A DNA stretch of 64,000 bases from NCBI GenBank assembly GCA_045837725.1, contig JBEWZL010000101.1:62001-126000 (forward strand), written 5' to 3'. Both the position numbers and the translations under genes were made by a program. This stretch comes from Vermamoeba vermiformis (taxonomy: Eukaryota). Positions 3,570 through 59,397 of the stretch are shown piece after piece (position 1 is the first letter of the stretch; each line of letters starts with the position of its first letter). Below the pieces are notes generated by a model. That model was not told where the DNA came from, made no database searches, and saw only the letters and a program-made list of their open reading frames with translations.

Positions 3570-3723
3570 GGGCTGTTGTACAACAATAAAAGAATCTGAT
3601 TTAATTGTTTTGGCGCGTAATTTTTTCGTCAAGGCGAAAACCAAAATTTGTGCAATAATCAACATTAGTATACGGCTATAACAACAAAAGATTGGCACAG
3701 GAATATATTTTACGCCTTTCATA

Positions 3724-12002: not shown

Positions 12003-15561
<3,559 letters not shown>

Positions 15562-34743: not shown

Positions 34744-35894
34744 ATGCAAGAGCGAGTAAGGATAATTTAGAAATTATTTTAAAGATACCCCAGATTGCAG
34801 AATTATTATTTTCAAAATATACGATAATTATTGAGATAGAATTACTACTGTCGTCTTATTAATTTTATGAGGGTTGCGAAATTGTCGACGATCTGGAGAG
34901 GCTCTGCCAGCTACTTTTTGAAGTCGAAGCTCCTTATATTATCAATATGACCAGCCTTGATTTGCGCGAGGCAGAGGTGGATTATGATCCATACAACGAA
35001 GACCAGATTCGCTCAGTGAACTTTTTTGTGGATGCGATAAGAAATTGTACCTCACTTCGTCACCTCGATTTATCGTATAAAACCAGCCTAACAGGTCACT
35101 TCACTCGTCAAAATTTATGGCAAAGATTATTTGAAGTCAATGGCAAAAATCTAACGGGCTTGATCCTCTCTGGCTGTTACGAGCTGACTGCAGGACCCGA
35201 CTTTTGTGCCGCGCTATCAAAATTACCCAATTTGGAGCACTTAGAGCTAAGCTGCTGTGATTTACAATCGAACAATTGCCGAGAGATCCTCGAGCGCCTA
35301 TTAACCAACAATCACCGTTTGGTCACGCTGGATCTATCAAGAAACACTTTGAATAAGAAGCCTGAAAGATATTTTGATAGCTGTTTGCGGGAAAAACCAC
35401 AGCCACCAGTTACGGATATATTATGCAAATTAATCTCTACGACAACTACTTTAAGAACGCTGGATCTGTCTGGAAACTCAAATATCAGCCTTTCAGACCG
35501 CATGGCGATGCACAAGGCATTAAAAACGAATTCATCGATTACGGAACTTAACGTTCAGCGCACTGAAGTGCCGTTCAACGAGACTCCATCCAGTCACAAC
35601 ATGATCTTCTCCGCTGGAATGGAAAATAAGCGTCAAATCTTATTGGTACGACAGTCTTTGCTAGAATTGATGGTACAAATATGCATTAAAAGTAGCTCGT
35701 GGCTCCTTCCTTGCGAGATCTGGAAGATCGTGTTCACGCACCTCGATTTGCCCACGCTGAAACGTAGCTACAGTGCATTGGAGATATTCAATAATATATG
35801 GACACTCAAAGACCAGTTGTATAATGCGGTGGCACGGAGATTGAGCTTTTCTGAAGCCACTGGCGGCAAATGGGTGAAAATTAAGCAGCTGTGA
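34744..35894 (+). CDS. RNI-like leucine-rich repeat protein with C-terminal F-box-like motif (start uncertain; main ORF 34947-35894)
   Basis: LRHLDLSY, LTGLILSGC, LEHLELSCC, LVTLDLSRN, LRTLDLSGN; C-terminal LLPCEIWKIVFTHLD; possible micro-exon MQER at 34744. Confidence 0.75.
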
Positions 35895-36408: not shown

Positions 36409-36784
36409 CAACGCCTCGTAATAACTCTGTGTTGCAGCAATCAACCGCTAAAGTGCACGCGCGGGATTTGATGCATCTTACGGACTTTGAGACACTATAA
36501 CCGTGTTGCAACAATCATGAAGGATATTAAACTGAAAACTCGGATAAAATTGATCGATTTGATTTTCATTGCACAGTTTATTTTAAAAGATTCACAGAAC
36601 GAATGAATTCTGTTGTAAAACTCGATAAACATTCAGTTTTGTAGTTTGCCGCATGTTGACGAGTTATAAAAGAGCCAAATTTTTGATTTAATCAGATTTT
36701 ATTAACCAACAGCGCACAAGGACCAATTAGATCTTCGCTCTTTGAACCTGATTCGGACTTTGCATTGCGTAAATAATTAATATA

Positions 36785-39700
36785 ATGTCTGACAAAGAAG
36801 AAGTCCCTCAACAACCGGCCTCCCACTCGACCAATGAAAGCGATCCGTCGAAGGAGGTAGAGATGGACCACGTTCCTCCTGTTGCAGACGGCCACAGACT
36901 CACTGCTGCTATTGGCGACAACCACAGCACTAGTGAAGAAGGGTCACATAAGGAAGGAATTTTTTCTAGCTCAGATGAGCTGAAGGAAAGAAAAAAGAAG
37001 AACAGAGAATCCGTCGCGTCGAATAGCCAATTCGAAAAGCCCAATCTCAAGACTCTTTTCAACCGAGAAAATGGCCAGCCTATCGAGGAGAATACCAAGA
37101 AAGGCCGTCCTCCCGTTCCCGGCAAACTTTACGACGATGATGTTAGACAGATCATAGATGTGCAATATAAGCTCATGCGCCAGACACTCAAGGGCGAGGA
37201 CATCTACGCAAACGAGGTGGCTATGGAATTTTTGGACGGATATTTGTGCTGGACAGAGCGCAATGACCCGAAGAAATTAGATGAGTCGATCAGAAGAATC
37301 AATGAAGCCCCCATGCACTGTCTTCTGCTTTTCAAGACTATTTACGCAGTTTGCGAACAAATTTCACACGCTGGCGATCGTCTGAGTCAGATCTATCACC
37401 AGGAACTCTACAAGAAAGAGCCCTATGGTCGTCTGAATGACCTCGTGACTGAAAAACTCGACGATATTGCTAACGGAAGCAAAAGCCGAAAGAATTATGA
37501 CAAGGTAAAGATTTCAAAACATAATATACGTTAGAATACTGAAATTAAAACTAAATCAGCACGTCGGATCGGAATTTCGGAGATTTATTTTGAGTGTGCC
37601 AAATGACTGATAAGCTATTCTTAATAGGAAGCCGGCGCTGACATAAGACAGACTTATCACCGCGGTTTGGACGAGCTTAAAACACATCAAGTAAGTTTAA
37701 AAAATTACTATTTTTGTGGTCTCAAAGTTTAAATGTACCATTTCGCAATTATACCAACGCAACGCAGTGGAAAATATGTGACTAACAAGCGCATTTATCA
37801 GGTTAATTTCGACGATATTGCGGATACCGCGCGCATTAACCAAAACAAGCCAATTAAGACTTTCCGCGAGCCTGAAAGTGTTTGGTCGTACATTGTTACG
37901 CTAAGAAACTATTGGTCAATTATTCAGTTCAATGGATTGATGATTTTCTGCATTTGGTGGTGGTTGCAGCCCGAAGACATCACGTTAATGATGTTGGCCT
38001 ATTTTGAAGGCGCATCTATGTTCGTTGGACTTTTGCTCGATTTCTCCTCTCGTATTTATGTGTATAGGTAAGTTATTGTTGAATTCTCGATACCCCAGAT
38101 ATTCGAATCAAATTTAATCAAATTTCAGTGGATTTGAGAAAACTAACGTGTTTTTCTGAATTATTATAGAGGCTCACCTTATCGCCTTGGTTTCTTCGGC
38201 TGGCCAGGCTGGATGGTCTTCTTCCACTGGCTCATATTCGTGATTTCATTGGCTTACTTCCCTGTTCTGATTGTAATCCCAATGTTGTCAGCGGATTTGT
38301 TCAAAGGCGAGCCACCAATCATTCTGATTGCTATCGTGTGCGGTGTCTTCTTAATTCGTTGGATCTACAATATCCTCCTAGTTTTGAAGTTCCCGTACAT
38401 CGCCAAGGGTCATCTCAAGCAATCTCGTCCGCCTTTGGGACAACGCGTTAAGCGAGGTACGTTCTGCGCCGTTAAAAATAACCACCGTACTCGAATACTA
38501 ACGAACATATTACTCTTAGGTCTGTTGATGTTGGGCTACTTCCTCATCACAATCGCCATCATGGTGATCTTGATCCGCTGGTTCATTTTGCCCACTCTCC
38601 AAAACTCCTCGTTCTGGAAGGTCTGCACCACTCAGCGCTCAAGCCTCGACTCTGCGTACATTCTTTGCGTCATGGGCACGACCTCTTTGTGGTTGCCTAT
38701 TTTGGCTACTGTCCTTATTTTGAACTACGTAAGTACTTGACACGTGTCAACAATATCCGAACGGAATTCTAACGAATTCTTTAACAGATTGCCCATACCT
38801 TGGTGCTCTCTATCATCGGCTCCGTGATGGCTCAGTCGAAGGGCATTGGTGAGTTCAGAGGCGAGAACTACGCCGTTCAAACTGCACTCAGCAAGCTCGA
38901 TCGCATGGTCGAATCTACCAAAGAAATCTACGACGCCAAGATTGCCCACCACGGCGAAAAGCAACGTGACGACGCCGGCAAGACGATCAAGCCGCAAATG
39001 TTCCACTTCACGATGAAGAAACAAGACAGCTTCGTGTATCAGACTCAAAAGTACAACAGCGCCACGCACATCTGGTGGCACATTATGTACGATCTCGTGG
39101 AGACTGATATGATCAACGAGGAACAAGCTTGGAACTCTCTCTTCCGCGAAAAGATGTACAGCATCGACTTGCCCAATGAACCCGAAAAGGCCATTCGCTT
39201 CTTCTTGAGTTCGTTGTCCAAGATCCACACCAGCGAAGTCACCAGCGTCGATTTGGACCGATTGCCTTCATTGTCCATGTTGATCCCGACGTACTCTGAA
39301 GCCTTGTTGTTCACTGAAAACTACCTCCGCAACACTACCGACAAGAAGATTAGCAACATTGAATTCTTGGCCAAGAAGTACAAGAACGAGTGGAAGAATT
39401 TCACTGAACGTATGGCTGCGACTTACAAGATCCCCAACGACCCTGACTGGATGTTGCAAAACTTCTTGCACCCACCAAAGGACGCCACTGACAAGAAGTT
39501 CTCCAAGAAGCTCGACGAAGAAGTCATGTTCTGGGCCTCTTTGCGCGGTCAAACCGTCTATAGAACCATTCGTGGCGCTCACTGCTACAGAACTGCTCTC
39601 GAGCTCTTGTTCCACGACTGCTTGCCCGACGCTGACTTCGAAGCTCTTCAAAAGAAGGTCGACGAGAAGCTGCAAATCATCTTGGCTCACCAATTGTTCG

Positions 39701-42324
39701 GTGACCCTGCCCAACACCCAAACTTAGCCCGTGAAACCAAGCTGATGATGAGAAAGTTCACTCACGGCTGCCACAAGATGTGCCCGTTGGCCGAGTGCCC
39801 CTTGAAGAAGGACCGCAAGTGCCCCATTGACTTGGTCTTCGATTGGGACTCCAACAAGATCTCCTCGTTGGAAGCTAGACGCGCTAAGCTCGAAGAAAGA
39901 AGAAAGACCGAGAACATCAGCTACTACTGGGAATCTGTTCTTCAACAAACCAACTCTTCCATTGAGATCGGCAAGAAGCTCGCAAGCATGATTAACTCGC
40001 CGGGCCAGTTCTCTTCAGTCTTGGCTGTCTACGACGAAACTGTCAAGAACTCCATCAACCCCGCCATGTACAAGTCCGTTGAGAACATTGTCACCAAGAC
40101 TACCGCTGCCAAGGACGACGATGACGACGACATTTTGCCCTTCAGAATCAAGCACGTCATTCCTCGTTTGAACCCGCTCGTGTTGGCCGTGCAAGGCAGT
40201 CTCAAGTTCTCGCCCCCTGAGATCATTCAGGGTAAGGCCAGCAATCAGCGCAACGGTCTGCTCTTTGCATGGGGTACTGTCGTGCAAACTAAGGACGCCA
40301 ATCAAGGTGGTAATCTCGCCGAAGCTGTCAAGTTCCCCATCATTCTGCAACGCTTCTTGTGGAAGGCTGAACGACCTGCCATCATCGGTTTCAGAGAACG
40401 CGTGTTCACTGAACGCCAAGGCACCATTGCTCGATTCCAAGCCTACGCTGAGTGGTCTTTCGTCACCATCACGCAACGTGTGCTCTCATTGCTCGGAGTT
40501 CGTATGCATTACGGTCACCCTGACTTTTTCTATGCTCCATGGGTCTACTCTCGTGCAGCACTCAGCAAGGCCTCGCCACGATACAACTTGTCTGAAGATA
40601 TCTTTGCCGGCTACATGGCCTTCTTGCACGGCAAGCGCTCGACTCACACTGATCGTATTCAAGACGACAAGGGTCGTGACGTCTCTATCTCTTCGACTGC
40701 TGTCTTCACTGCCAAGTTGGCTCAAGGTGCTGCTTCGCAATTGAAGACTCGTGACTTGTTCGAGCTCAACTCTCGCTGCGACTTCATCACGCAATTCTTG
40801 CTCTACCAAGGTACTCTCGGCTTCTACTTGAGTACCACGCTGATGTTAAGCTCTGTCCAACTCTACGTCTTTGCCCTGTGGCTCTTCTCCTTGGCGCGAT
40901 TCTCTACTGAGAACTTGGGTAACTTGGAGTTGGCGTACAGCGTGCCCTGGTTGTTCCAGACTGGTAACTTCTTGCTCATTCCTTTGCTCTTGGAATCTGC
41001 CATCGAAGCTGGTGTTTGGAAGGCCTTCCGTGTGTTGATCGACGTGCCGTTGTCTATGTTCTTCTTCCTGTTCCAGAGTCAGACAACCAACTACAACTTC
41101 TGGCAGTCCTTCAGATTTGGTTTCGCACAGTACATGCCGACTGGTCGTAAGCTGGAGTTGTCGCACAAGTCCCTCACGGAGCTCTATCAACGTTTCGGTC
41201 GCTCTCACTTCTTCCCTGGTGTCGATTTGTTCCTCTACTGCATCGTGTACATCGTCACCACTAGCTCTCGCGAAGGTGGTATCTTGCCCCTGTTCGCCCC
41301 TGCCATCACCATCATCATTTTCTTGGCCGCTCCCGTCCTTTACGACGGCATGTTGACTTTGAAGGTCTTCTTGCGCGACATTCGTGGATTCGTCTCGTGG
41401 GTCTACACCAAGAAGTCCATCAACAAGGTCAAGGCCGAATGGAAGAAGCGCCGTCAATTCGAGCAGTTCTGGAAAGAGCACACTGGTGTTATTAACATTC
41501 CTTACAACCTCTTGCAAACTTACAACATCTTCAACGCTGTCGAAAGCATGCTCAAGACCACTTCGTCCGTCGACGTTGGCTTGGCCCTCTACAACCTCCT
41601 CAAGTCCTTCTTCTGGATGTTGATCGTCGTCAGTGTTCCGGGTCAATTGCGTGATGTCACCGTGCACGTGTTCTTGCTCGGCTTGATCTACGTCGTCTGG
41701 AGCTTCGTGCTTGCCTTGTTGACCACTCGCAAGGCCAACCGCGCTGCCAACATTGTTGTCTGGATCATTATGCTTGGTGTCATCGTCGCTTACGCCACCA
41801 TCATGAAGCTCTACATGTTTTACGACCACCTCTTCATTGGTGTCTTCATCGTGTTCAAGTTGTTTGCCGCCCTGACTTGGTTCGTGGTCTACCTCAAGGG
41901 TGCCGTCGCTAAGAACCGCGCCAACGCAGCCTTCAAACACTTAGAGTCTCAAAAGAAGAAAGGAAAGATTGACGATGCTACTTACAAGACCAACATGACC
42001 AAGACCAGAGACAGCCTCGAGAACTCGCTGATCGTGACTGTCTACTTCGGTGAATTGATAGAGAAGCCTTACTACAGCTTGTCTGTCACTCTCATTTTGC
42101 TTCCTTGCCACTTCTTGCTCGGTGCCTTCCTCCACATCCCGGGCTTGTCTGATCTTTTGCTCTACGGAATGCGCTTGCAAGACAAACGTCCTCCTCAAGT
42201 CGGCGGTGCTCTTGGTAACCCTTACCAGACTCCCACTCCTGAAGGAGATAACATCGAACAGTTCTTTGATGAAGACGACATTGGTGATTTTGGAGAGAAC
42301 TCGATGACGGGATCTTTTGTATAA
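36785..42324 (+). CDS. 1,3-beta-glucan synthase (GT48, FKS/callose synthase family)
   Basis: PSLSMLIPTYSE, WASLRGQTVYRTIRG, GKASNQ, QTKDANQ, IIGFRERVFT, RMHYGHPDF, SKASPRYNLSEDIFAG, KGRDV, AQYMPTGR, LYQRFGRSHF; multiple TM helices; ~3.5-kb terminal exon. Confidence 0.93.
38738..38749. promoter_or_regulatory. Palindrome TGACACGTGTCA (intronic)
   Basis: Exact 12-mer in the last intron of the glucan synthase gene. Confidence 0.6.
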
Positions 42325-42694: not shown

Positions 42695-45600
42695 ATGAGT
42701 CTTGCGCCATATAGAATTATCTCTGTCTCGAAGAAAGGAGAGCGACCATTCTCTGTTAAGAATCCTCAAAAGAGCTTTTCATTTGGAACGTAAGTTGCAC
42801 ATAAATTATTACAATAAAATAAATATTTTGTATTAATATTTTGCTAGCGATTCTACCTGCCACATTCGCTTGAAGGATGTAAAGGACTCTGGATTTGCTG
42901 CAGTTCATTGCCAAGTCACTCCTATCGAAGGCAAGATATTTCTTGTGTCTCATGCACCTGTTTTAGTCAATGGTCAACCCACTAAGGGCATTCCCGTCGC
43001 GTTGAACAACGGTGATATGATCTCGATCGGCAAAGGAGTGCACGTCAATTTCAGATACGAAACTGCCCCAATCGACAAGCCTGCTGAGTAAGTGTTTTTA
43101 CTTTGCTCGAGCACGACATCGCTGCACGCATTTCTCGAACATCACTAATCTAGTTCCTTTTTAGATCAGCTGTTCCTTTTAAGGACATTACTCAACAAGT
43201 TGTCGTGCCCGATACTCCCATCAAGGTCGAGAAGAGCACCGATGGTCAACTTGCTCACTCTTCTAGCTCTTTGTTCGAGACTCTCAACGGATCTCAAGAT
43301 CGAAGCCGTCACGACGATGAAGACAGCGTTGAAGACAAGGAGAACAATCCTAGCGGTGTTGCCAAGGAGCGCAGACCTACTACAGAAGCTGCTCGCCCCG
43401 AGGCTGACAGAGAAGAGGCTCCCAAGTCGGATGTCGCACCCAAATCCAAAGCCACTCCCTCCAAGCCCCTCTCTCGCAAGTTGACTTACAGTGATGCTAT
43501 GGTGCCCCCTCCTCAAGAGAAGAAGACCGAAAAGAAGATTGCCAGCTCATCATCCAGCTTGGCTGTTGACAACGAGTTGAAGAACTACGAAGACGAAGAG
43601 GAGATCCAACAAGTCTCGCTCAGCAGTGCTCGTGATGAAGTCGAAGAAGAGTCAGTTGAGGAGAAGAAGGTCGCTAAGACCTCTAAGAAGCAAGCTAAGA
43701 CGCCCAAGAAGAACACTAAGGCCAAGAAGACCGAAGAGAAGGAAGAGTCAGAGGCCGAATCCAAGGCTGAAGAAGAAGAGGCCGAGAAGCCTGTTAAGGA
43801 AACCAAGTCCGCCAAGACACCCAAGAAACAAGCCAAGAGCAACAAGGCTGAAGAGAAGCCCGTTGAGGTCGAAGAGAGCGAGAACAACGAGGCCTCTGAA
43901 GCCGCTGAAGAGCCTGCCAAGGGCAAGAAGAAGGTAGCTAAGACTCCTAAGAAGAACACTAAGGCTAAGAAGGAGGCCGAGAAGGAGGCCGAGAAGGTCG
44001 AGGAGAAGTCCGCTGAAGAGAAGGAAGAGTCAGAGGCTGAATCAAAGGTCGAAGAAGAACCCGTCAAGGAGACCAAGAAGAAGGGCGCCAAGACCCCCAA
44101 GAAGAACACTAAGACTAAGAAGGAGGCCGAGAAGGTCGAAGAGAGCGAAGAAGTCTCCGAGGCCGAGACTAAGCCCGAGAAGAAGGCCGCTAAAACTCCT
44201 AAGAAGAACTCCAAGGCCAAGAAGGAGACTAAGCAAGAGAGCGAGCCCGAGAAGGAGTCCGAGGCTGAAGAAGAGTCCGTTAAGGAGACCAAGAAGACCA
44301 CTAAGAAGGCTTCCGGCAAGTCAAAGAAGGAGGCCAAGGCCGTCGAGAAGAGCGAGTCCGAGAAGGAAGAATCAGAGGCCGAGCAATCAGAACAAGAGAA
44401 GCCCAAGCCCGGGTTCAAGACTCCCACCAAGAAGTCATCAAAGACACCCAGCAAGGCCTACGTTGCCAACGCCACTTACGACTCGCCCAAGAGCAGTCCT
44501 ACCAAGTCTCCTCGTCCTCTCGCTATCAGCCCTAGCAAGCGTTACCAGAAGATCACGCACATCAGTGGCTCAGTGTCACACGAAGTCTACTCACGCTGGG
44601 TCCCTCAGGGCTTTGATATCAACAAGGACAAGAAGCAACCCAGACAATTGCGTAACTCACCGGAGCGCAAGAGCACCAACTTCTTGGCTCAAAAGGTCTA
44701 CCCCGGCACTGCTGTCAAGTCCGCCAAGAAGTCCAAGAAGAACAAGAAGCAAGCCTCAGCTCCTAACTCCCCGACTAAGACCGTCAAGACCCCTGCCAAG
44801 TCCGTCAAGAAGGAAGTTAAGATCAAGACTGAGTCTCACAAGGCCAAGTCCTCTAGTCGCCCAGTCGAGCACTTCGATGCTCCCGACGAGCGATCTCGCA
44901 TGGAGATTTTGAACATGTCTATGGTCAACATGATCAAAGAGCAACTTGCCTTGATGAACACTTGGGTCTCGTTCGACGAAATCTACACTTACCACCGCGC
45001 TCACTACGCTGTTCTCAACATGGATGCTTTGCGCGACATTGTCAAGGAGCTTGTCAACGAGAAGGTTGTGAGCTTGAGCACCAAGTCCAAGACTAAGCGC
45101 TACTGCTTGGCTGGTTGCGAGCCTGAAGAGCCCGTCAAGGAGAAGCAGGCCAAGGTCCAAGAAGAGCTTCCTGAGAACGAAACTGACGACGAAGAGTCTG
45201 AAGATGAAGGCGATCTCCGCACTGACTTGCAACAACAAATGATGCAGATCTGGTTGCGCGTCAAGGCTGCCAAGAGCGACAAGTTCTCTCAAGCCGTTCT
45301 TCCTTTCATGCACCGCCCCAGCAAGACCAAGTACCCCGAGTACTACGCCAGCGTGTCACGTGTTGTCACGATGAAGATGATCTTGCAAAGCATCAAGGCC
45401 GGTGACTACGAGACTCTCGAAGACATGGCCAAGGACTTTAGACAAATGTTCATCAACTTCAAGCGCTTCAACAGACCTACGTCCGATGTCTACAAGTGTG
45501 GTGCTTTGTTGGAGAAGGCCTACAAAGCTGCCATGAAGGAGGCTAAAGAGGCGGCTAATGAGAAGCCTGAAGAGGAGGGATCTGAACACGAGAGCGAAGA

Positions 45601-45790
45601 GAAGAGCGAGTCTGAAGAGCGCGAACAATCTTCTGACCGCGAGTCTGATAATGAAGACGAAGAAGAGAAGTCTGAACGCGACGAAGAGAGCGAGAACGGA
45701 TCCGACAATGAAGAAGAGAAGAGCGGATCTGACAACGAAGATGAAGCCCAAGAGAGCGTCAAAGAAAGCGTCGAATCTGACGATGAATAA
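42695..45790 (+). CDS. FHA domain + Lys/Glu-rich TPKK repeats + bromodomain chromatin protein
   Basis: Exons 1-2 FSFG|TDSTCHIRL...VHCQV...VLVNG...LNNGDMISIG...FRYE (FHA); repeated KTPKKN(T/S)KAKK; bromodomain PFMHRPSKTKYPEYY...GDYETLEDMAKDFRQMFINFKRFNRPTSDVY; acidic tail. Confidence 0.85.
43660..44440 (+). repeat. Imperfect coding tandem repeats alternating basic (AKTPKK) and acidic (EEKEESEAE) blocks
   Basis: At least 5 KTPKK copies with nucleotide-level similarity (aagac.cc.aagaagaacactaag). Confidence 0.85.
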
Positions 45791-46069
45791 GAAAGTTATT
45801 CAAATCTCAATTTTGTCGTAATAATCAACCTGTATCATAGCACGGCGATGTTTAATTGCATCGTCTAATAAAAGTTTATTTAATTCCAACTAGATCGAAC
45901 AACACAAGTTACTAAATGTGACGAAGAATATTATTGTGTAAATAGTGTAATTAAGAATATTCGGAGCATTAAGGGAGTTTTAAAAAAGTAAGTAGATCGG
46001 ATCGCGTGACGAGAAAAATTCAAATTAATTTAAAAATTATTTAGAGAATATTATATTGCCTTACATTGA

Positions 46070-47187
46070 ATGAACCAGCAAGTACCATCATTATTCAAAT
46101 TATGTGTGACGGTGATTGCAAGAAGTCAAGATCCTATAATCACTACACGGCTTAGTACTGCATCTTCAGTGCCAGCTAAGCTTGCAAATATTATAGCAAC
46201 TAGCGCATTAAAAGAGGACGTACCAATAACCGAAGAATTTTGTCGAATATATTTTAATGAAAATGTTACGAAGCTTGATCTGCAACACAGAAGTCCAAAA
46301 CGAGACTATTCAACGTTATTATGCCACGTAATGAACTCGTGTCCTAATTTAATCGAGTTATATATTCCTGGATGGAAAGACAGAGAAACACTAATCAAAG
46401 TTATGGATCAGATCCAATGTCGATACTTGCAACGCTTAGATATATCAGGAATCGACGATAACATCATATGGTCTGCTATATTTAGAGAGTTGCCTTATTT
46501 GGAACAACTAAAAGCGAATGGAACGATCTATTTCGACGATGAATGCTTGAAAACACTGGCCAAAGACGAAGAAACGACCGATGACACGTGTCAAAATGAG
46601 GACTCTGCTGAAAACTTCAATTTGACACTTTTACATTTGAGTGGCAACAGCGTCACGCACAGAGCGATGGATTTTATTGCTCAGTGTCCGAATCTGACCA
46701 ATCTGAATTTGGCTGGCAAAATGTCGTTAGACGATCAATCGATCAACAAATTATCGTAAGATCACATCGATATTTTGCACTGACTATTAACACGACTTTT
46801 TTCAGGAAATGTACCAGTTTAGATTCCATTGATTTGACCGGATGCACTCGGTTGTCAAGCGAAGCAATCGTAGACTTTTGTTTGACACATACACGGTTGA
46901 CATCTGTCAATTTGAGCTCAAACAGGCAATTGACAGTTGATGGCATCATGCAGATAGTACGAGGCTTGAAACACTCGCTACAACGGTTTTCTTTAGGCTG
47001 GCACAAAAATCTCATGACAAATGAAGCCATCCAAATGATCAATCTTTGCAGTAATTTACAGTACTTGAATCTGCTCGGCTGTCACAAAGTCAATGTCGAT
47101 CAGGTGTCAGAATACGTCTCGCACTTGACGTATTTATCCGTGATTGGATTCAAAAAATCACAGCTAGCTAAAAATGCAAAAAAATAA
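46070..47187 (+). CDS. Cys-containing LRR protein with N-terminal BC-box-like motif (2 exons)
   Basis: VPSLFKLCVTVIAR (BC-box consensus); CPNLIELYI, LQRLDISG, CPNLTNLNLAG, CTSLDSIDLTGCTRLS, LQYLNLLGCHKV. Confidence 0.8.
46582..46593. promoter_or_regulatory. Palindrome TGACACGTGTCA (inside CDS, encodes part of DDTCQ)
   Basis: Exact 12-mer; variant TGACATCTGTCA at 46898-46909. Confidence 0.5.
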
Positions 47188-47252
47188 AGCGAGGGTTTTA
47201 GCTGTTATATTACAAGTGCAGTATTAACATGTTAAATTATGATCGCTGTGGT

Positions 47253-49506
47253 CTATACAAGGTTGACGTTGGCAAGTGTCGCGCGTTGTTCTTTGTCCAA
47301 CAATCGAATGCTCGAGGCCATTTTCAAGGTACAATACCACTGCTCTAACTTGCTCAGCCCGCCTTTGTACTTTGGTGCGGCCAATTTGCTCAACAATTGA
47401 AAGCGTTTGCACAACACTGGCTTGCTCGCTTGTCGCAGCGTCATCTTTTCTGCCAATAAGCCGACGTAGAACGTTTGAGCAATGATTCTAAACGGAAATT
47501 TCAAGTTAGTAATTTGATCTGAAACAAACCACAATGTTGGATATCTTACCGAAGCGAGTGCCAAATGCAATACAATACAGCATCGAATGAATACTCGGGC
47601 CATTTACCACCGGTCAGAATGAAGGCTTCAGTGAGCACTTCTTTGCGTTGTTTCGGATCTTCAATTTCATCGGCTATCTTTTCGAGCTTGCCGACACGCT
47701 TCCAAATACGAGCATTGAGGGTCGGATAGCGCGAACCAATAGTAGCTCCCAAGCTAATAATAATAATTAGACTGTGGCCGATATCATTTTAACCCTTGTG
47801 GCTGAAACTTACATGCAATAGAGCAAGAGCAAATAGCACAACAATGTGACTTCACTCGATTGTGAAGCGAATTGAATAAAAGCAAGTAAAATCCATAAAT
47901 AATACGTCAATCTCGTGCTCCAAGTGTTGGCGTGTGAAGTCAACGTCGCATCCATCGACTGCAGGGATCTGCCGTTGGACTGCGAAGAGTTGCTTGGTTC
48001 GCCAAAGGACAAGAAGTTGTATGCTTGATGGAATAAACTGAAAAAGACGAAGATGCCCTATAATCGAATCAAATATCAAACGTCAGTTCGGATCCAAGTG
48101 TGATTAAAAAATCAAGTCACGAAATTTCTGGCTGAATTTAAAGATTTAAATTTTTATCGTTTCACCTTACCATTAGGAACCTAGAATATTCGACCATGCC
48201 TTGAGGGTTGTCATATTGACCAGTACTATTGCCATTTCCATTGTTATTCGGGATTGATTGAGTCGAATTAGTTTGATTGCGCGTGGGGCTGTTCGAATTG
48301 CCCGTTTGACTCGTGTTGTTCGAGTATTGGCCTGAATATGTGTTGGGCATGTTAGCCTGCTGGGCCACTTGCCACTGTGGTTGCGGCGAGGCCACGTTTT
48401 GCTGTTGAACTCTCGAGCTTGCGGTTGGATTCGCTTGTTGATTTGGATCCAAAAACAACTTTTCATTTGCTTTGTTCAACATTAAGTGGGAGGGTAATGA
48501 GGTTTGTAAGAAATATGGATTCTGAAGCATTTGGTTGATAACCGCTGGATCTGGAGTGGTAGGAACGGTGTATCCAGATAACGGAATCTGATCGGATTTT
48601 GTGCTGTAATTGGGAGCAATGTGATATCCAGATTGACGATAGATTTGAGCGTCGATTGGAAAACTAGGCGGTAGAGCATATGTCGGTTGAGCTGGCCGAC
48701 TAGCCTCTACATCTGGTACGTCGCTGTTAGCAGATACGCTCGGCGAATCCGATCTATTCGAGCGCAACTCTTCGATATAGGTTATCTGCAAAATTAATTA
48801 ATTAATTAACATATTAGGCTTAAACGTCGTTACGCGCGAATCGAGAAACGCGCAAAATCGAAAATAAGCACGTGCGGTGGATTTTTTCTAAATAAGGAAA
48901 GTACGCGCTGCAGTTCGCGTGCTTGGAGGCGGAAAGTTGGCCGCGGATGTGACCACCAGCTTAAAATATTTGTAAAATTACGTACGAGTTTTTTAAGGCC
49001 CGGGATCTCAGTTATATTTCTCATCAACTGGTTCTGTTTTGGGTCTACAGCTTTGTCTTTTAATAGAAGTAAGCAGGATGTGGCTTCCTTGACTATCGCA
49101 CTTCTACTATATAAATTTTTTGCACCATAATGCGCGACTAAGACATTTTTTAGATCTTCAAAAGCTGAAGTCAAATTTTCTCTTCGTTTCCTTTCGTACT
49201 CTTTGCGTTTTTCTTTTGCTTCTCCAGCTATTAATGGTTCTCCTCGCTTTAAATCGTCGTCCTCGTCACTTATAATAATATTCAGAAATTTGTTTGCTTG
49301 GCTTTTTAAAAGCAAAAAAAGCGGCGGAATCCAGCCGCGCGATCGCCGATCGGCTTTGAAATAATTTAGCTTACCTTAAAATTCCATCTTCTTCGTCTGA
49401 ATTATCAAGACGTGGACCTTAATTTAAAATGTCAATCATATTAATAAATCTTTGGGCACGTACGTTTTAATCCAGATCTTTTTCTTTCGTAAATTGAATC
49501 GCTCAT
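47253..49506 (-). CDS. SREBP-like membrane-tethered bHLH transcription factor
   Basis: bHLH KRKEYERKRRENLTSAFEDLKNVL...SRSAIVKEATSCL; Q/N/S-rich linker; GMVEYSRFLM|GIFVFFSLF (TM1); loop GRSLQS; hydrophobic LTYYLWILLAFI and LLCYLLLLYCILG; C-terminal IWKR...GGKWPEYSFDAVLYCIWHSLRIIAQTFYVG resembling the SREBP regulatory domain. Confidence 0.78.
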
Positions 49507-49667: not shown

Positions 49668-50141
49668 CCGTGCTATCAGTCCAAACTTGGAAAGTGAGTA
49701 TATTGTTATTGTCTATGTCTGTCAATGCGTTGAACACGTTTCGTAGCGAAGGATGGTACTCCTCGATCAAGGTCGAGTGCGGGAATAACTCCTTTTGAAA
49801 CGGTTAAAAATACCTTTAATTAGCGACGGCAAGGATTGATCGTCCATAATTGAATTGATCGAGCTGTAAGGTTTTTACTAATTTCAGACGAATCCGGATT
49901 TCAGGTTTTGTTGCAGTTTGAATTGCTTGCCAAATTCAGCACTAACGCAATACATAGGATTCAACAATTATGTTGCCTTTGTCCCGTGTTGCGGATTACA
50001 GTGATTGTGTCAATTAAACTTTTCTCCGGCCATAAATCGCAGCAAAGTTTCGATCAAAAATCTCGCACAAAAATAACCTCGCAATTCAGCATTTGGTATT
50101 CCTAAAATACCTCCTTACACCGCCACAGCTTCCCTTGTATC

Positions 50142-53100
50142 ATGGAGTTGTCTCGCGAGGGTGTTGTCGTGCGAGGTCTAACGCGATCTTACGGATCGCA
50201 CCGCGTTCTCGACAAACTCGATATGAACGTTGAACCCGGTAGTATTTATGGTGCGTACACATATGCTATTTGTGGTAATTATTAACTCGTTGATTTAGCT
50301 TTATTGGGGCCTAGCGGATCTGGAAAGACAACTCTGCTTAAGGTAAGCGACAAATATCAAATGTGACAATAATAATTTAGAAATTACAACCCTAAGTTAA
50401 TTCATTGCTCATATTATGTCCACCTATTTATTTGAGAATTTCAATAATTTTCGTATTTACGTTACTACGCCTACGCTATTATTGTTCAGCAAAATAAGTT
50501 GCTAATTTTACTTTAGCTATTATTAGGCAGGCTCGAGCCTGATTATGGCTCAGTAGTAGTGCTCGGTAAACCGCCAAACGCACGTGCTCATCCAGTTCCT
50601 GGACCAGCAGTTGGTAATTTAATCCTCCGTATTCATGAATCGTTCGAGTATTAACTATATAATTTAAAGGCTATGCGCCTCAAGAATTTGCTTTACACGA
50701 AGATCTATCAATTCGCGAGACGTTATTATTTTACTCGAGCCTGAATCAAATGAGCGCGAGTGATTTTAAAGCACGCAAGAAATATTTATTGGAAATGTTA
50801 GATTTACCTTCAGAAAAACGAATTATCAAAACTTTAAGTGGCGGTCAACAAAGGCGCGTGTCACTAGCCGTGGCATTATTGCACAATCCAGAGCTATTGA
50901 TCCTCGATGAACCGACTGTAGGTGTGGACCCAATGTTGAGATCTCGCATTTGGGACTATTTGCGCGACATTACGCAGAAGACAGGTGTCACTGTCATCAT
51001 TACAACTCACTACATCGAAGAGGCTCGGTACGTACTTATAATAAGAGTCAATATCAAAACCGATGGATGAACTTTACGTTAACTAACGCTATTAAACTAT
51101 TATAGAGGTGCTGATCGCGTCGGATTGATGAGACACGGAAAGTAAGTGTCAAAATGTCAAGTTGCGAGAGTGACACTTTGTAACAAAATTTTACTGCAGG
51201 TTATTAGCGGAGGCAGATCCCGAGTCATTGCTTAAAGAGTACAACGCGACTAATCTCGAAGACGTGTTCTTACAGCTGTGTCGCGCTGAACACTACAAGA
51301 AGGAACATCATCAAAATGACCTCCCTGAAACGATGGAAAAAGGTCAATCAGTCGTCGAACGAAAGCCACCAGCGCGGGTAAGAACGACAGGGCTTAATAA
51401 AATCACGCGCTTTATACTAATGCATCTGTATCTAGAAAAATGTCGACAAGTTCCCTTCAATCAACGAGGACGGTGATGAACATGACGCGTTGTTACGTAA
51501 GTTCGGAAGTATTAGCTATTGTTCTTATTCTTAATTGTAATTTATAGGCACTAAGAGCTCGAAAAAGCCAAGCAATTGTTGCGCCACGACAGCGAAACAC
51601 GTGTTTGCAATTGCTCGAAGAAAATTGACGCAATTATTGCGTAATTGGCGGTTATTTGCATTTGAATTGTTATTGCCAGTATTTCAAGTGTATTTGCTCT
51701 TATCAGCTATTGGTGGAGATCCTCACAATCTAAAAATAGCGGTACGTACAATTTTATCTCTCCGTAATCTATATTTGACACGTGTCATTTTTAGGTGTTT
51801 AATGAAGATGCAGGAACACCTATTTTTAACGTGCATCTTTCCAATGAATATTTGGGATATTTTGCGCCGAATAATACGGATATGTTTGACTTGATTAATG
51901 TGACTGATTATAACACGGGCTACGACATGGTCAGAAATGCAAAAGGTAAGATATTATTGATTTTAGGCGAATTACTTAATAAATCTATTTTTAGCTTGGG
52001 GTTTCTTGCACTTTGGTCCAGATTTTTCAACGGGTTTATTGAGCAGAATCAATTTCCCATCGAATCAGACTTACATCAACCAATCAACGATTCATACTTA
52101 TTTGGACATGTCGAACTATCAAGTCGTTGCATTAATTTTGCGTCAGATGCAGACCTCTTTCGAGAGTAAGTTTCAATTTCCTTTTTAGGCAATCGACTTC
52201 TAACCACTTTGATCAGGCATGTCCGAAGCCAAGCTAGGCTCGAATATGAACCCTATTGATATCAATGCGGTCTACGGCTCAACAAATACAAACTACGTCG
52301 CGTTCATTGCGCCAGGCATGATTGTCATGACCACATTTGCATTCGCGATTGGTCTGACAGCGCTGGCCTTTGTGCGCGAGAAGAGCGATGGCTGTTTAGA
52401 TCGAATATTCTCGACGGGTATGTATTGGAGATGAATGAGTTGCACGCGTGCGAGTATTACAATGACACGTTAATTTGACAGGTGTCAAAGCGCGAAGTGT
52501 CATTGGCGGTCATTTCCTCACGCACAGTTTGATCGGTGTGTTCCAGACTGTATTCTTATTAATAGAAGTAGTGTACATATTTAAGGTACGCATATCATCC
52601 CCGTCAAAACACTCGTTCATAGCTCATTTTTTTATTGCAGATCCCAGTCGCTGGCCTCGTGGTGTATGTCTTCGCAATGATGTTGATCTTACAATTTGCG
52701 GGCATGAGCTTGGGTCTGTTGATATCAACGTAAGTACTAGACTACGGTTAGGTTACTAGATCTAACAGATCACGTAGTGCCTCAACGTCGGAACGTGATG
52801 CCGTTCAACTGACACTCGGCTCGTTCTTCCCTGTAATGATTATGAGCGGCATTCTTTGGCCTATTGAAGCCGTAAGCTCACATCATAAATATATAAATGT
52901 GAGCTGATCTAACACACTTTTAGATCCCGAAGTACTTGGTGTGGATCTCCAAGATATTGCCAACGATGTGGGCAGCAGATGCAATGCGCAGTGTCATGAT
53001 TCGAGGCTGGGGCATGGAGTGGCAAGGTGTATGGCAATCATTCTTGATCACTGGTGCGTGGGCCCTGGCATTGGTGGTGTTGGCCTCGTTCAACTTGTCC

Positions 53101-53163: not shown

Positions 53164-53440
53164 AAAAGATTCTCTATAGATGCGTTCTAGAAGTGTTTCT
53201 TTAATTTAATGGCATGTGATTCGTACCCGGTTACGTGTGAATCAGAAGGGAATTATATTTGATTTATTTGAATTGTAGGTAAAGATGCAACCGTGAGAAT
53301 GGTTTTAATTGAAATAGATGTTTATAGGAAGGTAGCATTTGCCACTGGACAAGAGACTGGTCCTGCTGCCAACTATTTAAGCGAAACAATCAATTTTTCG
53401 AATCATTTTCATATCACGGAACAAAGAACAACAACAAACG

Positions 53441-53860
53441 ATGGGTGTTTTTCAATCATCACTTACTTTTGATCGCGAGAAGATCAGCACTGACGGAGGT
53501 ATCAAGTACGAAGGATACTGGGCATCCGAAGAAGACAAGGCTTCTCCGTTCCCTTTTCCAGTTGGAAGTGACACTCCTTGGCCTGGAAAGGAAGAGTTCT
53601 TAACGAAATTAAGAGCTAAACAAGAAAAGGCTGAAGTGATTTCATACAGAGGTTTATCCCACTGCAGATTAGTTGAAAAGAACGGATGTGAGTCGGAACT
53701 TCCGCCTGGAATGGATCCCTTAAAAAACAACGGTGCTTCTGAATATAAAATGGTCACAGCAAATGGCGACGTCATTCACTGGCCAGAAGGATACGAGCAT
53801 TACATCGAAGTTCACAACGTCAAACCCAGCAGAGAGTTTTACAACTTTATTATGAATTAA
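53441..53860 (+). CDS. Intronless 139-aa hypothetical protein (Cys/His motifs), copy 1
   Basis: Single ORF YEGYW...YRGLSHCRL...NG..EY...WPEGYEHYIEVHNVKPSREFY; TATTTAA upstream; A/C-rich start context; paralogue at 57219. Confidence 0.85.
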   Translation: MGVFQSSLTFDREKISTDGGIKYEGYWASEEDKASPFPFPVGSDTPWPGKEEFLTKLRAKQEKAEVISYRGLSHCRLVEKNGCESELPPGMDPLKNNGASEYKMVTANGDVIHWPEGYEHYIEVHNVKPSREFYNFIMN

Positions 53861-56977: not shown

Positions 56978-57218
56978 ATTTGCTGTCAAATTGCTTGTAC
57001 TAAAATAGGATCATACAAATTTGGATAAATTGCGATTCAATCCGTGGTCATTTGTATTAACAATAACAAATGAAATAAACTAAAAAAAGTTGTAACAATC
57101 ATGTGACTTTTCGCTGACGTGACTTGACAACAAGGTACAACATTTGTCCCCTGACGAGACAGGACCGGCGTTAGAACTTGTGCTTTTATTCCCGCTACAC
57201 ACAAGACAGAAGACAACA

Positions 57219-57635
57219 ATGGAGACGTCACTCGACTCATTTGATCGCGAGGTCATCAATGTTGACCACGGAATTAAATACGAAGGCTACTGGGCCACAT
57301 CTGCTGAGGACAAATCGTCCAATTTTCCTTTTCCATGTAGATACGATGCTCCTTGGGCCGGAAAGGATGTATTCGTAAGAAAATTGCGAGAAAAACAAGA
57401 GAAAGCGGAAGTTCTTCGTTTCAAAGGGTTTTCGACCTGCAGATTGGTTGGTGCTGACGGATGCGTAGCTACCCCAGCAGGTTTTCTAGGAGAAGTATGC
57501 ATGAATGGAACGGCGGAGTACAAGATTACCGCGCCTAATGGCGAAGTGATTCACTGGCCTGAAGGATACGAACACTACATCCAAGTTCACAACGTCAAAC
57601 CCAGCAGAGAGTTTTACAATTTCATTATGAATTAA
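57219..57635 (+). CDS. Intronless 138-aa hypothetical protein, copy 2
   Basis: METSLDSFDRE...YEGYW...FKGFSTCRL...WPEGYEHYIQVHNVKPSREFYNFIMN; clear paralogue of 53441-53860. Confidence 0.85.
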   Translation: METSLDSFDREVINVDHGIKYEGYWATSAEDKSSNFPFPCRYDAPWAGKDVFVRKLREKQEKAEVLRFKGFSTCRLVGADGCVATPAGFLGEVCMNGTAEYKITAPNGEVIHWPEGYEHYIQVHNVKPSREFYNFIMN

Positions 57636-57692: not shown

Positions 57693-59397
57693 TTATTTAC
57701 AGGCAGATAGATCCAAGCACATCAGGATCGCGTCTTCATTCTCATCGCGGTAATAGTTATCTAAATACTTAGCAGGCTTAAATCCGAATTTTTGATACAA
57801 TTGTTGCGCACCCTTGTTGAATATTGACACGTGCAAGAAAATCTTTAAAAGAAAAAACAAAAGTTAGCAACTCGGATCCGACATTTTGACAACTCAAACA
57901 ACATTAGCAATGTGATGAATATGCTGTGAGTAGTATAGTAAATTGCGATAGGGTAGACTTACATGAGGGATGCCAGAGAGCTTGGCCCAGTCCACTACAT
58001 GCTGCATAAACTTGCTGCCAACACCGCGTCCTCGGCTGTGTGATGCGACAGCAATGCTGACCACTGTGACTTCGTTGTGTTTGATCCAAAAGCTCACGTA
58101 GCCTGCAATCACGTGCGTCACTGGCTCGTGTTGTTGTTGCTGACACGTGTCATCAATGTCCATGTCATCCGAGTCGTAGTACTGGTACTGGCGCAGCAAC
58201 TTCCTAGTTTGGCACAGCTCGCGCAGTTCGTGCTCATCGGCATCGATCTCGCGTTCTGCGACCAGTAAAAACACGTTGTTCTTGTACAGCGACTTCTTGA
58301 AGAAACTGCGTTGATAGGGCTCGAAAAATGATTCGTTCTCGATCAGCATGACGTCATCTAAATCTTCTTCCGTCATCTCGCGCAGGGTTACTGTTATAAC
58401 AGGAAATTATTTCAGATCCAGTACAAGTATTGAAATATTTGAAAGAAATCTTGATCGAATAGCTACGTACTCTTTTTCTCGTCGCATATAATCTTTTTAA
58501 ACTGTTCTGATGAAGGAATTGTTCGTTGATTTTGCGCCACAACTTGTTCTTGTAATTGTTTGCGTGAGCCACTCTTGCCGAGAGCATCTTCGTAACAAAT
58601 AGGGAATTGAAATTGCGGCCATAGGTCACGTGGTGGTAAGGCGAAGGGCGTCTTCAAGCACAAATGGTTCAATGGATGGACTGAGTTGTGGATCTCGCAT
58701 TTCTCGCATAGATCTACTTTAGGACAATTGAGACATATGAAGCGAGCTCCTATTATAGGTCCCGAGCATGAACTGCAGAATAATTCTTTGTGTACGATCA
58801 TCGCATCTGTTTCAAATTGTTATTCAGACGTGATTCAAGTCCGTATAATGTATATATTACCTTCTATAACCTTCTCGTCGACTAATAAAGGCAATGTCAT
58901 ATTTGGTCGCTTCTCAACTTCAGGTAATGGATAATACACTTTGATGAACAGATGGGCAGGTTGATGATGTTTCTTTTCGAGGTTCTCAGCTTCGCATATC
59001 TCACATAGATCGTAGTCTTCGCAAATGCTGCATCTGTAGCGAATACCGAGGATTGGAAAGTCACAAGCATCGCAAATTGCTTCGTGATCCAGTTGCTAAC
59101 CGAAGAGCGTTAATGTACGGTTATTGAGACGAAAAATATGTAGAAAATTGAGTAAGAAAGTTGTTATTGTGCGAAACATAACGAATAGATATGACAGATC
59201 TGAGTAAATTGAACCAAATTGAAAATATCTGAAATAAATTCAATTAAATACTGTAATAGCGCGATATTTCACTACTAATTATAAGCTTAATATAAAAGCA
59301 CTCCTCTATATTAATAAAAAGGTCTTATCGCTAACGCTCACATCCAGATGGGTTGAAGTCTTTAACATACCTTTATCGTGCTGCTAGCATTCAACAT
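57693..59397 (-). CDS. Tandem ZZ zinc fingers fused to RimI/Ard1-type GNAT acetyltransferase
   Basis: HEAICDACDFPILGIRYRCSICEDYDLCEICE; HKELFCSSCSGPIIGARFICLNCPKVDLCEKCE; REMTEEDLDDVMLIENESF, SIAVASHSRGRGVG, LHVSIFNKGAQQLYQKFGF, YYRDENEDAILM. Confidence 0.88.
58141..58152. promoter_or_regulatory. Palindrome TGACACGTGTCA (inside CDS, encodes part of DDTCQ)
   Basis: Exact 12-mer within an acidic/Gln insertion of the GNAT domain. Confidence 0.5.

Follow-up and report, generated by a model that had tools for sequence, protein, structure and literature searches.

Does a membrane-anchored bHLH factor of the SREBP kind exist outside animals and fungi? The question is raised by a minus-strand gene at 47253..49506 of the window, the 64-kb stretch of DNA that was analysed. 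Regulated intramembrane proteolysis, like sterol and oxygen sensing, has its textbook example in SREBP; the C-terminal domain (CTD) of this protein is the part that binds SCAP, and its motifs include R-x-hydrophobic-x as the site-1 protease site, together with D-R-S-R and Asn-Pro as determinants for S2P. In a 2025 paper (PMC12926077) the accessible text presents the mechanism as one conserved in animals and fungi alike, the available part of a 2025 paper on hypoxia in Dictyostelium leaves open whether anything similar exists in amoebae (PMC12750705), and for Tetrahymena the excerpted text of PMC8079401 reports no SREBP or SCAP homologues. The host of the present gene is Vermamoeba-like (Amoebozoa) and thus neither animal nor fungal, as the initial annotation of the locus had supposed: a glucan-synthase (GT48) ORF at 38785-42324 is identical at 1137 of 1178 positions (97%) to the EukProt Vermamoeba vermiformis protein P0156. 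Scanning the 64-kb window with Rfam and for tRNAs returned no matches, and no SREBP-pathway partner genes were recognised among the window ORFs scanned.

Rebuilt from the window DNA, the gene (49506..47253) comprises seven exons with GT..AG introns throughout, and its coding sequence of 1668 nt stays in frame and encodes 555 aa, arranged as a bHLH, a Q/N-rich linker, a two-pass membrane hairpin and a 139-aa tail. The interval originally assigned to it (47253-49506) runs exactly from the ATG at 49506 to the last base of the TAG stop (47255-47253), and all strings that had been quoted from the protein, ERKRR, GRSLQS and IWKR included, are present in the translation. Exon 1 (49464..49506) holds the start codon and the first 14 codons plus 1 nt, and exon 2 (49375..49417) an acidic N-terminal stretch; exon 2 follows from the in-frame model, and the N-termini of P0138 and P0141 are colinear over the exon 1/2 junction. 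Further downstream, GMVEYSRFLM and GIFVFFSLF adjoin across the exon 4/5 junction, as do WPEYSFDAVLYCIWHSLR and IIAQTFYVG across the exon 6/7 junction. Splicing is supported by colinear relatives, this strain's own RNA not being the basis: P0001, P0137, P0138 and P0141 (544-567 aa, ~83% identical) are colinear over 6/6 junctions and have their stop at the same place, P0001 and P0138 following the whole coding region. P0141 is a 567-aa ORF on a contig of 1771 nt, which therefore has no room for introns. A convergent LRR gene ends at 47187, 66 bp past the stop, so there is no space for further 3' exons. The three RNA runs labelled with the same species contributed 1, 4 and 5 reads at the locus (95-99% likeness), too few to serve as evidence of expression or splicing, and no splice joints occur among these 10 reads. 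All 10 lie in bins with exon or UTR sequence, the wholly intronic bins being empty (10 reads only).

The human SREBP strings cited in the initial annotation were compared by way of P0167, a 1073-aa animal-type SREBP used as a stand-in; that it is a real SREBP is seen from its bHLH, which matches the human SREBP-1a chain 1am9 at 2.9e-27 and 1ukl at 1.7e-17. In the window protein, exon 3 (48986..49268) encodes the bHLH and a zipper-like helix. Pfam HLH matches this exon at ~49216-49061 with 28 bits (cut-off 20.7) and P0001 with 24.6 bits, and by this measure the protein carries the N-terminal bHLH(-zip) domain that characterises the SREBP family. Direct reading of the basic-region core (49181..49195) gave E-R-K-R-R, to be set against E-K-R-Y-R in P0167 and 1am9, and the Arg codon CGA at 49186-49184 occupies the position of the SREBP hallmark Tyr, a replacement that had been pointed out from the start. 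The same Arg is found in 9/9 amoebozoan bHLHs read (window, P0001, P0129-P0133, P0138 and P0164), whereas P0167 and 1am9 carry Tyr, a residue to which the accessible text of PMC12926077 ascribes a role in SRE binding.

The view that the bHLH itself is specifically SREBP-like found no support in the comparisons made. The best PDB chains for exon 3 were Max, in a weak match; a profile of the bHLH family gave 22 PDB matches at E<=1, headed by Max at 1.7e-5, and the SREBP chains 1am9 and 1ukl were absent from these 22. BLASTP of amoebozoan bHLHs (P0164, P0138) to that of P0167 reached an E of 0.035-0.037 only. Judged on these alignments, the window protein's bHLH is not specifically nearest to SREBP bHLHs. 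Max/Myc-type group-B bHLH-zip proteins share its E-R-K-R-R basic region, and its helix 1 is most like that of Max; they differ in being soluble and having no membrane module, the window protein being predicted to be membrane-anchored. Because the basic region is Max-type (E9, R12, R13), a released factor would be predicted to bind CACGTG-type E-boxes and not sterol regulatory elements.

On the Kyte-Doolittle scale, hydropathy peaks at 326-344 and 398-416, and a loop of 31 aa separates the hydrophobic regions. Exon 4 (48171..48785) encodes the linker, rich in Q, N, S and P, followed by the E-Y-S-R motif that precedes TM1 and by the first TM1 residues (48200-48171). The rest of TM1 opens exon 5 (48004..48057) and coincides with a hydropathy peak that aligns to TM1 of longer relatives and of P0167. 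It is followed by the loop, predicted to be lumenal (47911..48003), in which G-R-S-L lies at 47973-47962, and by the second hydrophobic region (TM2), which ends exon 5 (47813..47910), runs on in exon 6 to 47735, has a hydropathy of 2.2 and aligns to TM2 of P0167. Both by hydropathy and by alignment to TM1 and TM2 of P0167, then, the window protein has the two spans and the loop of ~30 aa, with its predicted lumenal side, that belong to the SREBP layout. The motif G-R-x-L is conserved in P0132, P0133, P0164 and P0165 and in the SREBP P0167. The first hydrophobic span contains no Asn-Pro in the window translation, and the claim that the NP helix-breaker is lacking from TM1 is therefore correct. 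At 40 residues, the second hydrophobic region is long enough that it might cross the membrane twice, which would make the tail lumenal.

Behind the membrane, exon 6 (47550..47753) encodes the last part of TM2, then a basic stretch and conserved juxtamembrane helices recognised by hhalign, and is 85% identical to P0001. Exon 7 (47253..47487) encodes a V-G-L-L-A-E-K motif, a 70-aa remnant of the CTD start and the stop; the alignment to the long forms reaches profile column 442. These long forms are P0164 (Stenamoeba stenopodia, 935 aa), P0165 (Sappinia pedata, 762 aa), P0132 (776 aa) and P0133 (925 aa), and it is through them that the relation to SREBP becomes visible. When six amoebozoan sequences were aligned to P0167 by hhalign, the match had Prob 97.5 and E 8.3e-12 over 269 columns (P0167 433-726), and over the hhalign runs the long forms matched SREBP with Prob 96-97.5 and E 2e-9 to 8e-12. 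The long forms alone scored 76.2 against residues 400-760 of P0167, block shuffles scoring <=32.4 in 10/10 cases. BLASTP of P0164 against P0167, with composition adjustment, gave 1e-10 at 25% identity over 311 columns. The short form in turn matched the long forms with the bHLH left out (hhalign; Prob 93.4, E 2.4e-7, 160 columns), its real score of 61.6 exceeding that of 30/30 full shuffles (<=20.1), the reversed sequence (15.9) and 12/12 block shuffles (<=27.5); residues 300-555 of the window protein by themselves matched the long forms at Prob 86.7 and E 4.3e-6 over 213 columns. Directly, BLASTP of P0138 against P0167 was weak (E 0.015 for the juxtamembrane stretch, 0.035 for the bHLH), and the link between Vermamoeba and SREBP is for this reason a transitive one. 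The homology of the TM, juxtamembrane and CTD-start module to SREBP is thus supported by way of the longer amoebozoan relatives, in line with the earlier suggestion that the region behind the membrane is related to SREBP.

What is absent from the window protein is the large C-terminal regulatory domain. Only 139 residues lie between the end of TM2 and the stop, so that the domain is indeed much shorter, as had been proposed; the long relatives are 350-500 residues longer there, and ~450 CTD residues are missing. Pfam PF09427 (DUF2014) gave no match to exons 6+7 (E<=10), to P0001 (E<=0.01) or to P0132 and P0133 (E<=1). In the ESM Atlas, the two clusters nearest to the P0001 tail score 0.79 and 0.76 and have DUF2014 on 12% and 88% of members respectively, and the P0164 tail is near TPR and cohesin-loader clusters at <=0.83; both sets of scores are under the level where chance matches are common and provide leads only. 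A single-sequence AlphaFold model of P0001 was unusable (mean pLDDT 47). The C-terminal domain of P0164, modelled by AlphaFold from seven sequences, is predicted to be an alpha-solenoid, with pLDDT mostly 70-97 over residues 350-900. The PDB matches that Foldseek listed for this model are generic TPR solenoids, with a best TMq of 0.32, and include no SREBP chain; nor was a PDB chain found that matches the post-membrane region of P0167, phmmer of which finds bHLH chains only. Of the proposal that the gene encodes a divergent SREBP outside animals and fungi, the membrane and post-membrane homology stands, and against it count the Max-like bHLH and the DUF2014 scans.

In a phmmer search with P0001 over 1.84 billion representatives, 13 proteins were found at E<=0.001, among which there was no recognisable SREBP. 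One of the candidates, P0134 (E 5e-5), consists of tandem repeats and has no HLH match; it was discounted as probably spurious. The long relatives and the window protein share I-P-G-L after the zipper, the TM hairpin, G-R-x-L and the juxtamembrane motif; P0165 is without a bHLH, and the other three (P0164, P0132, P0133) have E-R-K-R-R. On this shared layout the long amoebozoan relatives are the true family of the window protein, from which they differ in having kept a CTD of 350-500 residues. An origin by horizontal transfer out of animals or fungi was rejected, because the family occurs in both Tubulinea and Discosea, with 23-26% identity and with the Arg and I-P-G-L in common.

We consider it probable, with some reserve, that the gene encodes an ER-tethered bHLH-zipper factor of an amoebozoan family, the hairpin, juxtamembrane helices and CTD start of which are homologous to those of SREBP, and which would be released and bind E-boxes. 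A cytosolic position would be expected both for the half that carries the bHLH and for the C-terminal stub, in view of the alignment to SREBP and of the basic stretch that directly follows TM2. Proteolysis at or near the membrane would free the N-terminal half; the conserved G-R-x-L, predicted to be lumenal, fits R-x-hydrophobic-x, and D/E-x-S-R precedes TM1 as in SREBP. A pathway of regulated intramembrane proteolysis, as first suggested, may be at work. Shared with animal SREBP (SREBP-1/2, Drosophila HLH106; here P0167) is the order of parts, which comprises the bHLH-zip, the long low-complexity linker, D/E-x-S-R, TM1, the ~30-aa loop with G-R-x-L, TM2, the basic stretch, the juxtamembrane helices, which end in '...P-x-S/T ... 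R ... H/Q ... V/L-G', and the CTD start. In contrast to animal SREBP, the window protein has Arg for Tyr, a Max-nearest bHLH, no Asn-Pro in TM1 and ~139 residues after TM2, against ~540 in P0167. Fungal Sre1/SrbA is likewise a membrane-bound bHLH protein with a C-terminal regulatory domain, and differs in that the fungi have a DUF2014 CTD and Tyr, the amoebozoan proteins scanned being without a DUF2014 match.

Part of the same evidence could be read as a canonical SREBP, taken to the Golgi by a SCAP-like escort, cleaved by S1P and S2P on depletion of sterol or oxygen, and in control of sterol-synthesis genes. The loop G-R-x-L and the D/E-x-S-R before TM1 are common to the family and P0167, the first CTD helices are kept in the window protein, and the large CTD of the long amoebozoan relatives makes an escort plausible for those. 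For the window protein this reading is nevertheless unlikely, as ~450 CTD residues are missing, the Tyr that is needed for SRE binding according to the accessible text of PMC12926077 is Arg, and Sre2 of fission yeast, in the part of PMC5285346 available, stands as a two-TM SREBP that is Scap-independent and constitutively cleaved. The short C-terminal domain argues against a SCAP-type escort, and on its sequence features the window protein is not a canonical SREBP. Because most of the regulatory domain is missing, the Vermamoeba form would more likely be processed without a SCAP-like escort, by analogy with Sre2, its closest parallel: likened by description and not by sequence, this SREBP-type protein has two TM spans and no functioning escort domain. 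The same portion of PMC5285346 describes Sre2 as an SREBP paralogue that shows no binding to Scp1 and undergoes cleavage constitutively and independently of sterol, from which constitutive, sterol-independent release would be expected of the window protein; Sre2 differs in keeping the hallmark Tyr and in needing the Dsc E3 ligase. An opposite scenario is that of a permanent tether in the ER or nuclear envelope, with the protein acting at the inner nuclear membrane or using its bHLH for dimerisation only. A TM1 without the Asn-Pro helix breaker would suit such a protein, as would the 87% conservation of the C-terminal stub, a possible sign that the stub itself functions close to the membrane; this reading is quite improbable, however, given that the homologous SREBP module is a release device and that a syntenic relative has dropped the anchor with its bHLH and linker exons intact.

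The likeness to SREBP might also be convergent or compositional, an unrelated bHLH having independently gained a two-pass anchor. This would agree with a bHLH unlike that of SREBP, with the marginal score of the short form when matched directly to SREBP and with the inflation of profile scores by hydrophobic segments; convergence is very improbable all the same, for the alignment continues at least 130 columns beyond the membrane into soluble helices, the landmarks occur in the same order and spacing, the BLASTP value of 1e-10 was reached after composition adjustment, and the hhalign scores beat block shuffles preserving local hydropathy. Gene decay, or a mis-assembled and functionless model, is very unlikely to explain the locus: the reading frame stays open through seven exons with canonical splice sites, relatives with 83% identity share its frame and stop on contigs without room for introns, and conservation is higher in the C-terminal part than in the linker (identity to P0138 is 84% for the TM part, 87% post-TM and 75% for the linker, the least conserved part), even if the anchor exons have decayed in the syntenic relative and hardly any RNA reads under the same species label fall at the locus.

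The kinship of the amoeba's membrane anchor with that of SREBP suggests that the anchor design is older than animals and fungi. With its homologous anchor and E-box-type basic region, the amoebozoan family would provide an outgroup for separating ancestral from derived features of SREBP: on the ancestral side the question concerns the anchor, the lumenal site and the regulatory domain, and on the derived side Tyr and SRE binding. Whether the anchor can function without a SCAP-binding domain is a further question, and Vermamoeba is culturable, so that N-terminal release and DNA targets are directly testable. We give about even chances to a history in which the tethered bHLH-zip with hairpin, G-R-x-L and helical CTD was present before the opisthokonts, in the common ancestor of Amoebozoa with animals and fungi, Arg and E-box binding being ancestral, Tyr, SRE binding and perhaps the sterol link being later opisthokont additions, and the system being dismantled stepwise in the Vermamoeba lineage. 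The series contained in this history would lead from a full CTD in Discosea through the truncated Vermamoeba form to loss of the anchor in a syntenic uncultured relative. At L001 and L002, which are syntenic loci, a stop stands just before TM1 and the anchor exons have decayed, whereas the exons for the bHLH and the linker are intact, a pattern that fits an N-terminal half that is the active part.

The gene on the minus strand at 49506..47253 was rebuilt as seven exons (exon 1, 49506-49464; exon 2, 49417-49375; exon 3, 49268-48986; exon 4, 48785-48171; exon 5, 48057-47813; exon 6, 47753-47550; exon 7, 47487-47253), separated by introns of 46-200 nt, all GT..AG. The spliced coding sequence (1668 nt, 555 residues) extends from the ATG at 49506, the earliest downstream of an in-frame stop, to a stop codon at 47255-47253. 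Exon 3 encodes the bHLH (Pfam HLH, 28 bits with a cut-off of 20.7), and no Pfam match at E<=10 was obtained for the other exons. Additional 3' exons are implausible, as only 66 bp separate this stop codon from that of a convergent LRR gene ending at 47187. The coordinates and all motifs quoted from this protein in the initial annotation were reproduced by the rebuilt model.

The joining of the bHLH and transmembrane (TM) exons was seen in close relatives. When exon 6 was used as a query in a word-based search limited to longer proteins, the sole match among 24 candidates was P0001 (544 aa, also containing an HLH domain), 85% identical over this exon. P0001, P0137, P0138 (554 aa) and P0141 (567 aa) belong to the same cluster; they are colinear with the window model at six of six junctions and stop at the identical position, with 454 identities to the window protein over 558 alignment columns (about 83% of the residues aligned). 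P0141 is a 567-codon ORF on a contig of 1771 nt, which cannot hold introns, and the bHLH and membrane exons are therefore contiguous in a close relative. Ten RNA reads from three runs contained no splice joints for the gene, a number negligible as evidence in the window strain.

The window has a G+C content of 41.8%, short introns and large exons. It carries a GT48 1,3-beta-glucan (callose-type) synthase gene (36773-42324, plus strand), the last exon of which is a 1179-codon ORF at 38785-42324 (Pfam 310 bits). Among the 120 matches listed for this ORF, the named relatives were from plants, stramenopiles, dinoflagellates and a haptophyte (ca. 28-42% identity), with no fungus or animal, and no fungal FKS, among the named rows. 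A Rhizamoeba saxonica protein matched at 50%, and P0002, 95% identical, falls into the same 90% cluster as the EukProt Vermamoeba vermiformis protein P0156. Direct comparison of the ORF with P0156 by BLASTP gave 1137 identities in 1178 positions (97%); on this basis the host is assigned to Vermamoeba or a very closely related amoeba (Amoebozoa, Tubulinea). The non-animal, non-fungal genome proposed by the initial annotation was thereby borne out; the host is not an opisthokont, which would have removed the novelty. The glucan synthase itself may bear on the cyst wall.

A phmmer search with P0001 over 1.84 billion representatives returned just 13 proteins at E<=0.001. Seven were exon-sized pieces of close relatives, three (P0129-P0131) were bHLH fragments of 42-46% identity, and two were long proteins, P0132 (776 aa) and P0133 (925 aa); P0134, a repeat protein, was regarded as spurious. 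A profile of P0133, P0132 and P0138, run over 8000 candidates, recovered five at E<=1: the query member P0133, P0164 from Stenamoeba stenopodia (935 aa), P0165 from Sappinia pedata (EukProt, 762 aa, an ORF without a bHLH), the C-terminal fragment P0166, and P0167 (1073 aa). The long forms (P0132, P0133, P0164 and P0165) contain 350-500 further C-terminal residues, predicted by AlphaFold (seven sequences) to form a confident alpha-solenoid in P0164.

Nine amoebozoan bHLHs were read (the window protein, P0001, P0129-P0133, P0138 and P0164). All share an I/V/T-P-G-L motif after the zipper, and the basic region is E-R-K-R-R in every case except P0130 (E-K-K-R-R). Common to the full-length members and P0165 are a D/E-x-S/G-R motif preceding TM1, a loop with G-R-x-L (replaced by S-R-x-L in proteins of the P0001/P0138 type), the second hydrophobic region and, after it, the motif F/W-P ... 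R ... H/Q ... V/I/L-G. P0165 is labelled a complete ORF and displays the TM hairpin, G-R-x-L and the whole C-terminal domain, with a Q-rich N-terminus where the bHLH is expected; either its transcript assembly is truncated or it is a paralogue lacking the bHLH.

P0167 is, by its matches and motifs, an authentic SREBP of the animal type: its bHLH matched human SREBP-1a (1am9) at 2.9e-27 and SREBP-2 (1ukl) at 1.7e-17, and it carries E-K-R-Y-R and an Asn-Pro in TM1. An hhalign comparison of six amoebozoan sequences with P0167 (residues 433-726) gave 269 columns at Prob 97.5 and E 8.3e-12, in a region that begins just N-terminal of TM1, takes in both TM segments, the loop and the juxtamembrane helices, and ends within the C-terminal domain. 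The same region was aligned by composition-adjusted BLASTP of P0164 with P0167 (1e-10, 25% identity, 311 columns). The four long forms alone scored 76.2 against P0167 400-760 (Prob 96.2); shuffling in blocks of 12 residues, so that local hydropathy was preserved, gave 32.4 or less in ten of ten cases. P0135, a short-form fragment without the bHLH, matched the long forms over 160 columns (Prob 93.4, E 2.4e-7, score 61.6); its controls reached at most 20.1 (30 of 30 full shuffles), 15.9 (reversed) and 27.5 (12 of 12 block shuffles). Residues 300-555 of the window protein matched the long forms over 213 columns, reaching the start of the C-terminal domain (Prob 86.7, E 4.3e-6). With four to seven sequences, the alignments compared are shallow. 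Searched against SREBP directly, the short form gave marginal matches (juxtamembrane helices, E 0.015; bHLH, E 0.035), and the homology therefore rests on a transitive chain, from short form to long forms to SREBP. We consider this chain sound, since the landmarks hold their order and spacing throughout; the post-TM match to SREBP for which the initial annotation had proposed a profile search was thus found in two steps.

Several features set the protein apart from SREBP. The SREBP-defining Tyr, present in P0167, is replaced by Arg in all nine amoebozoan bHLHs read, the window protein (codon 49186-49184) among them, and TM1 of the window protein lacks the Asn-Pro seen in P0167. PMC12926077 describes this Tyr as essential for SRE binding. 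Neither SREBP chain (1am9, 1ukl) was among the 22 PDB matches to the family bHLH profile at E<=1; these included Max (1.7e-5) and further E-box factors. Pfam DUF2014 was not matched in the window exons, P0001, P0132 or P0133. Only 139 residues lie between TM2 and the stop, comprising the juxtamembrane helices and the first ca. 70 residues of the regulatory domain. The Arg, the missing helix-breaker and the much shorter C-terminal domain had all been noted earlier and were upheld; as to the SREBP-like bHLH then proposed, the likeness holds for the anchor module, which is homologous, and not for the bHLH itself. Because of the Arg, the Max-like bHLH, the short tail and the lack of DUF2014 and Asn-Pro, we assign the protein to an amoebozoan sister family sharing the SREBP anchor module, and not to the SREBPs themselves.

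The basic cluster that directly follows TM2 and the alignment register shared with SREBP suggest that the 31-residue loop faces the lumen, with the N-terminal half and C-terminal stub on the cytosolic side. The second hydrophobic region, 40 residues aligned to the single TM2 region of P0167, may represent two spans. The active part would be the N-terminal bHLH half, freed by proteolysis. Site-1 protease substrates display an R-x-hydrophobic-x pattern, which the conserved lumenal G-R-x-L fits as a candidate site; D-R-S-R is a determinant for site-2 protease, possibly mirrored by the D/E-x-S-R before TM1. In SREBP, exchange of the Tyr for Arg limits binding to E-boxes. A CACGTG-type E-box is the predicted target here, since E9, R12 and R13 are as in Max. 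As most of the regulatory domain is absent, the closest functional analogue for regulation would be fission-yeast Sre2; according to PMC5285346, Sre2 has two TM domains and no Scp1 binding, and is sterol-independent and cleaved constitutively.

Identity between the window protein and its 83%-identical relative was 84% in the TM region, 87% after it and 75% in the linker. Two metagenome contigs from a related uncultured amoeba, L001 and L002, are syntenic with window positions ~45300-49500 (bromodomain gene, LRR gene, convergent bHLH gene). In their bHLH orthologue (L001:640-2440, L002:641-2440), exons 3-4, encoding the bHLH and linker, are intact and 57-60% identical; an in-frame TGA lies at the end of exon 4, immediately before TM1, and just remnants full of stops are left of the TM and juxtamembrane exons. 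A stop-bearing 40-mer is identical in both contigs. The factor appears to have been converted to a soluble bHLH protein; loss of the anchor with retention of the bHLH is expected if the N-terminal half does the work and the anchor merely controls it.

No description of an amoebozoan SREBP-type protein was found in the papers searched; prior automatic annotation, for instance in PANTHER or InterPro, is possible. The SREBP mechanism is called "conserved across animals and fungi" (PMC12926077), a similar mechanism in Dictyostelium is left unclear (PMC12750705), SREBP/SCAP homologues are reported absent from Tetrahymena (PMC8079401), and SREBP is mentioned for animals and fungi only (PMC5064789, PMC1828162). 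The chief value of the amoebozoan family is as an outgroup polarising SREBP evolution; it also provides a natural series in which the regulatory domain and the anchor are lost.

No SREBP-pathway member was found among the genes for a glucose/sorbosone dehydrogenase-like protein (GSDH; 33086-34514, plus), a bromodomain protein with lysine-rich repeats (43154-45790, plus), an ABC-transporter ATPase (50106-51070, plus), a copine (12295-13044, minus) and a GNAT acetyltransferase (57894-58406, minus). Paralogous F-box-like/LRR and ankyrin-type genes are dispersed in the window (1177-6345, 34863-35894, 46070-47187), the last being convergent with the bHLH gene, an arrangement kept in L001. Two paralogous plus-strand ORFs, 53381-53860 (Pfam DUF7919, 32 bits) and 57123-57635, lie ~3.7 kb apart and share a near-identical C-terminal stretch. 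CACGTG occurs 33 times in the whole window (10.8 expected; none of 100 shuffles reached 33). Eight of these candidate bHLH sites cluster in a 1.8-kb stretch at the copine-like gene (12521-14352), and another candidate (48869-48874) lies inside intron 3 of the bHLH gene, which at 200 nt is long and GC-rich relative to the rest of the gene.
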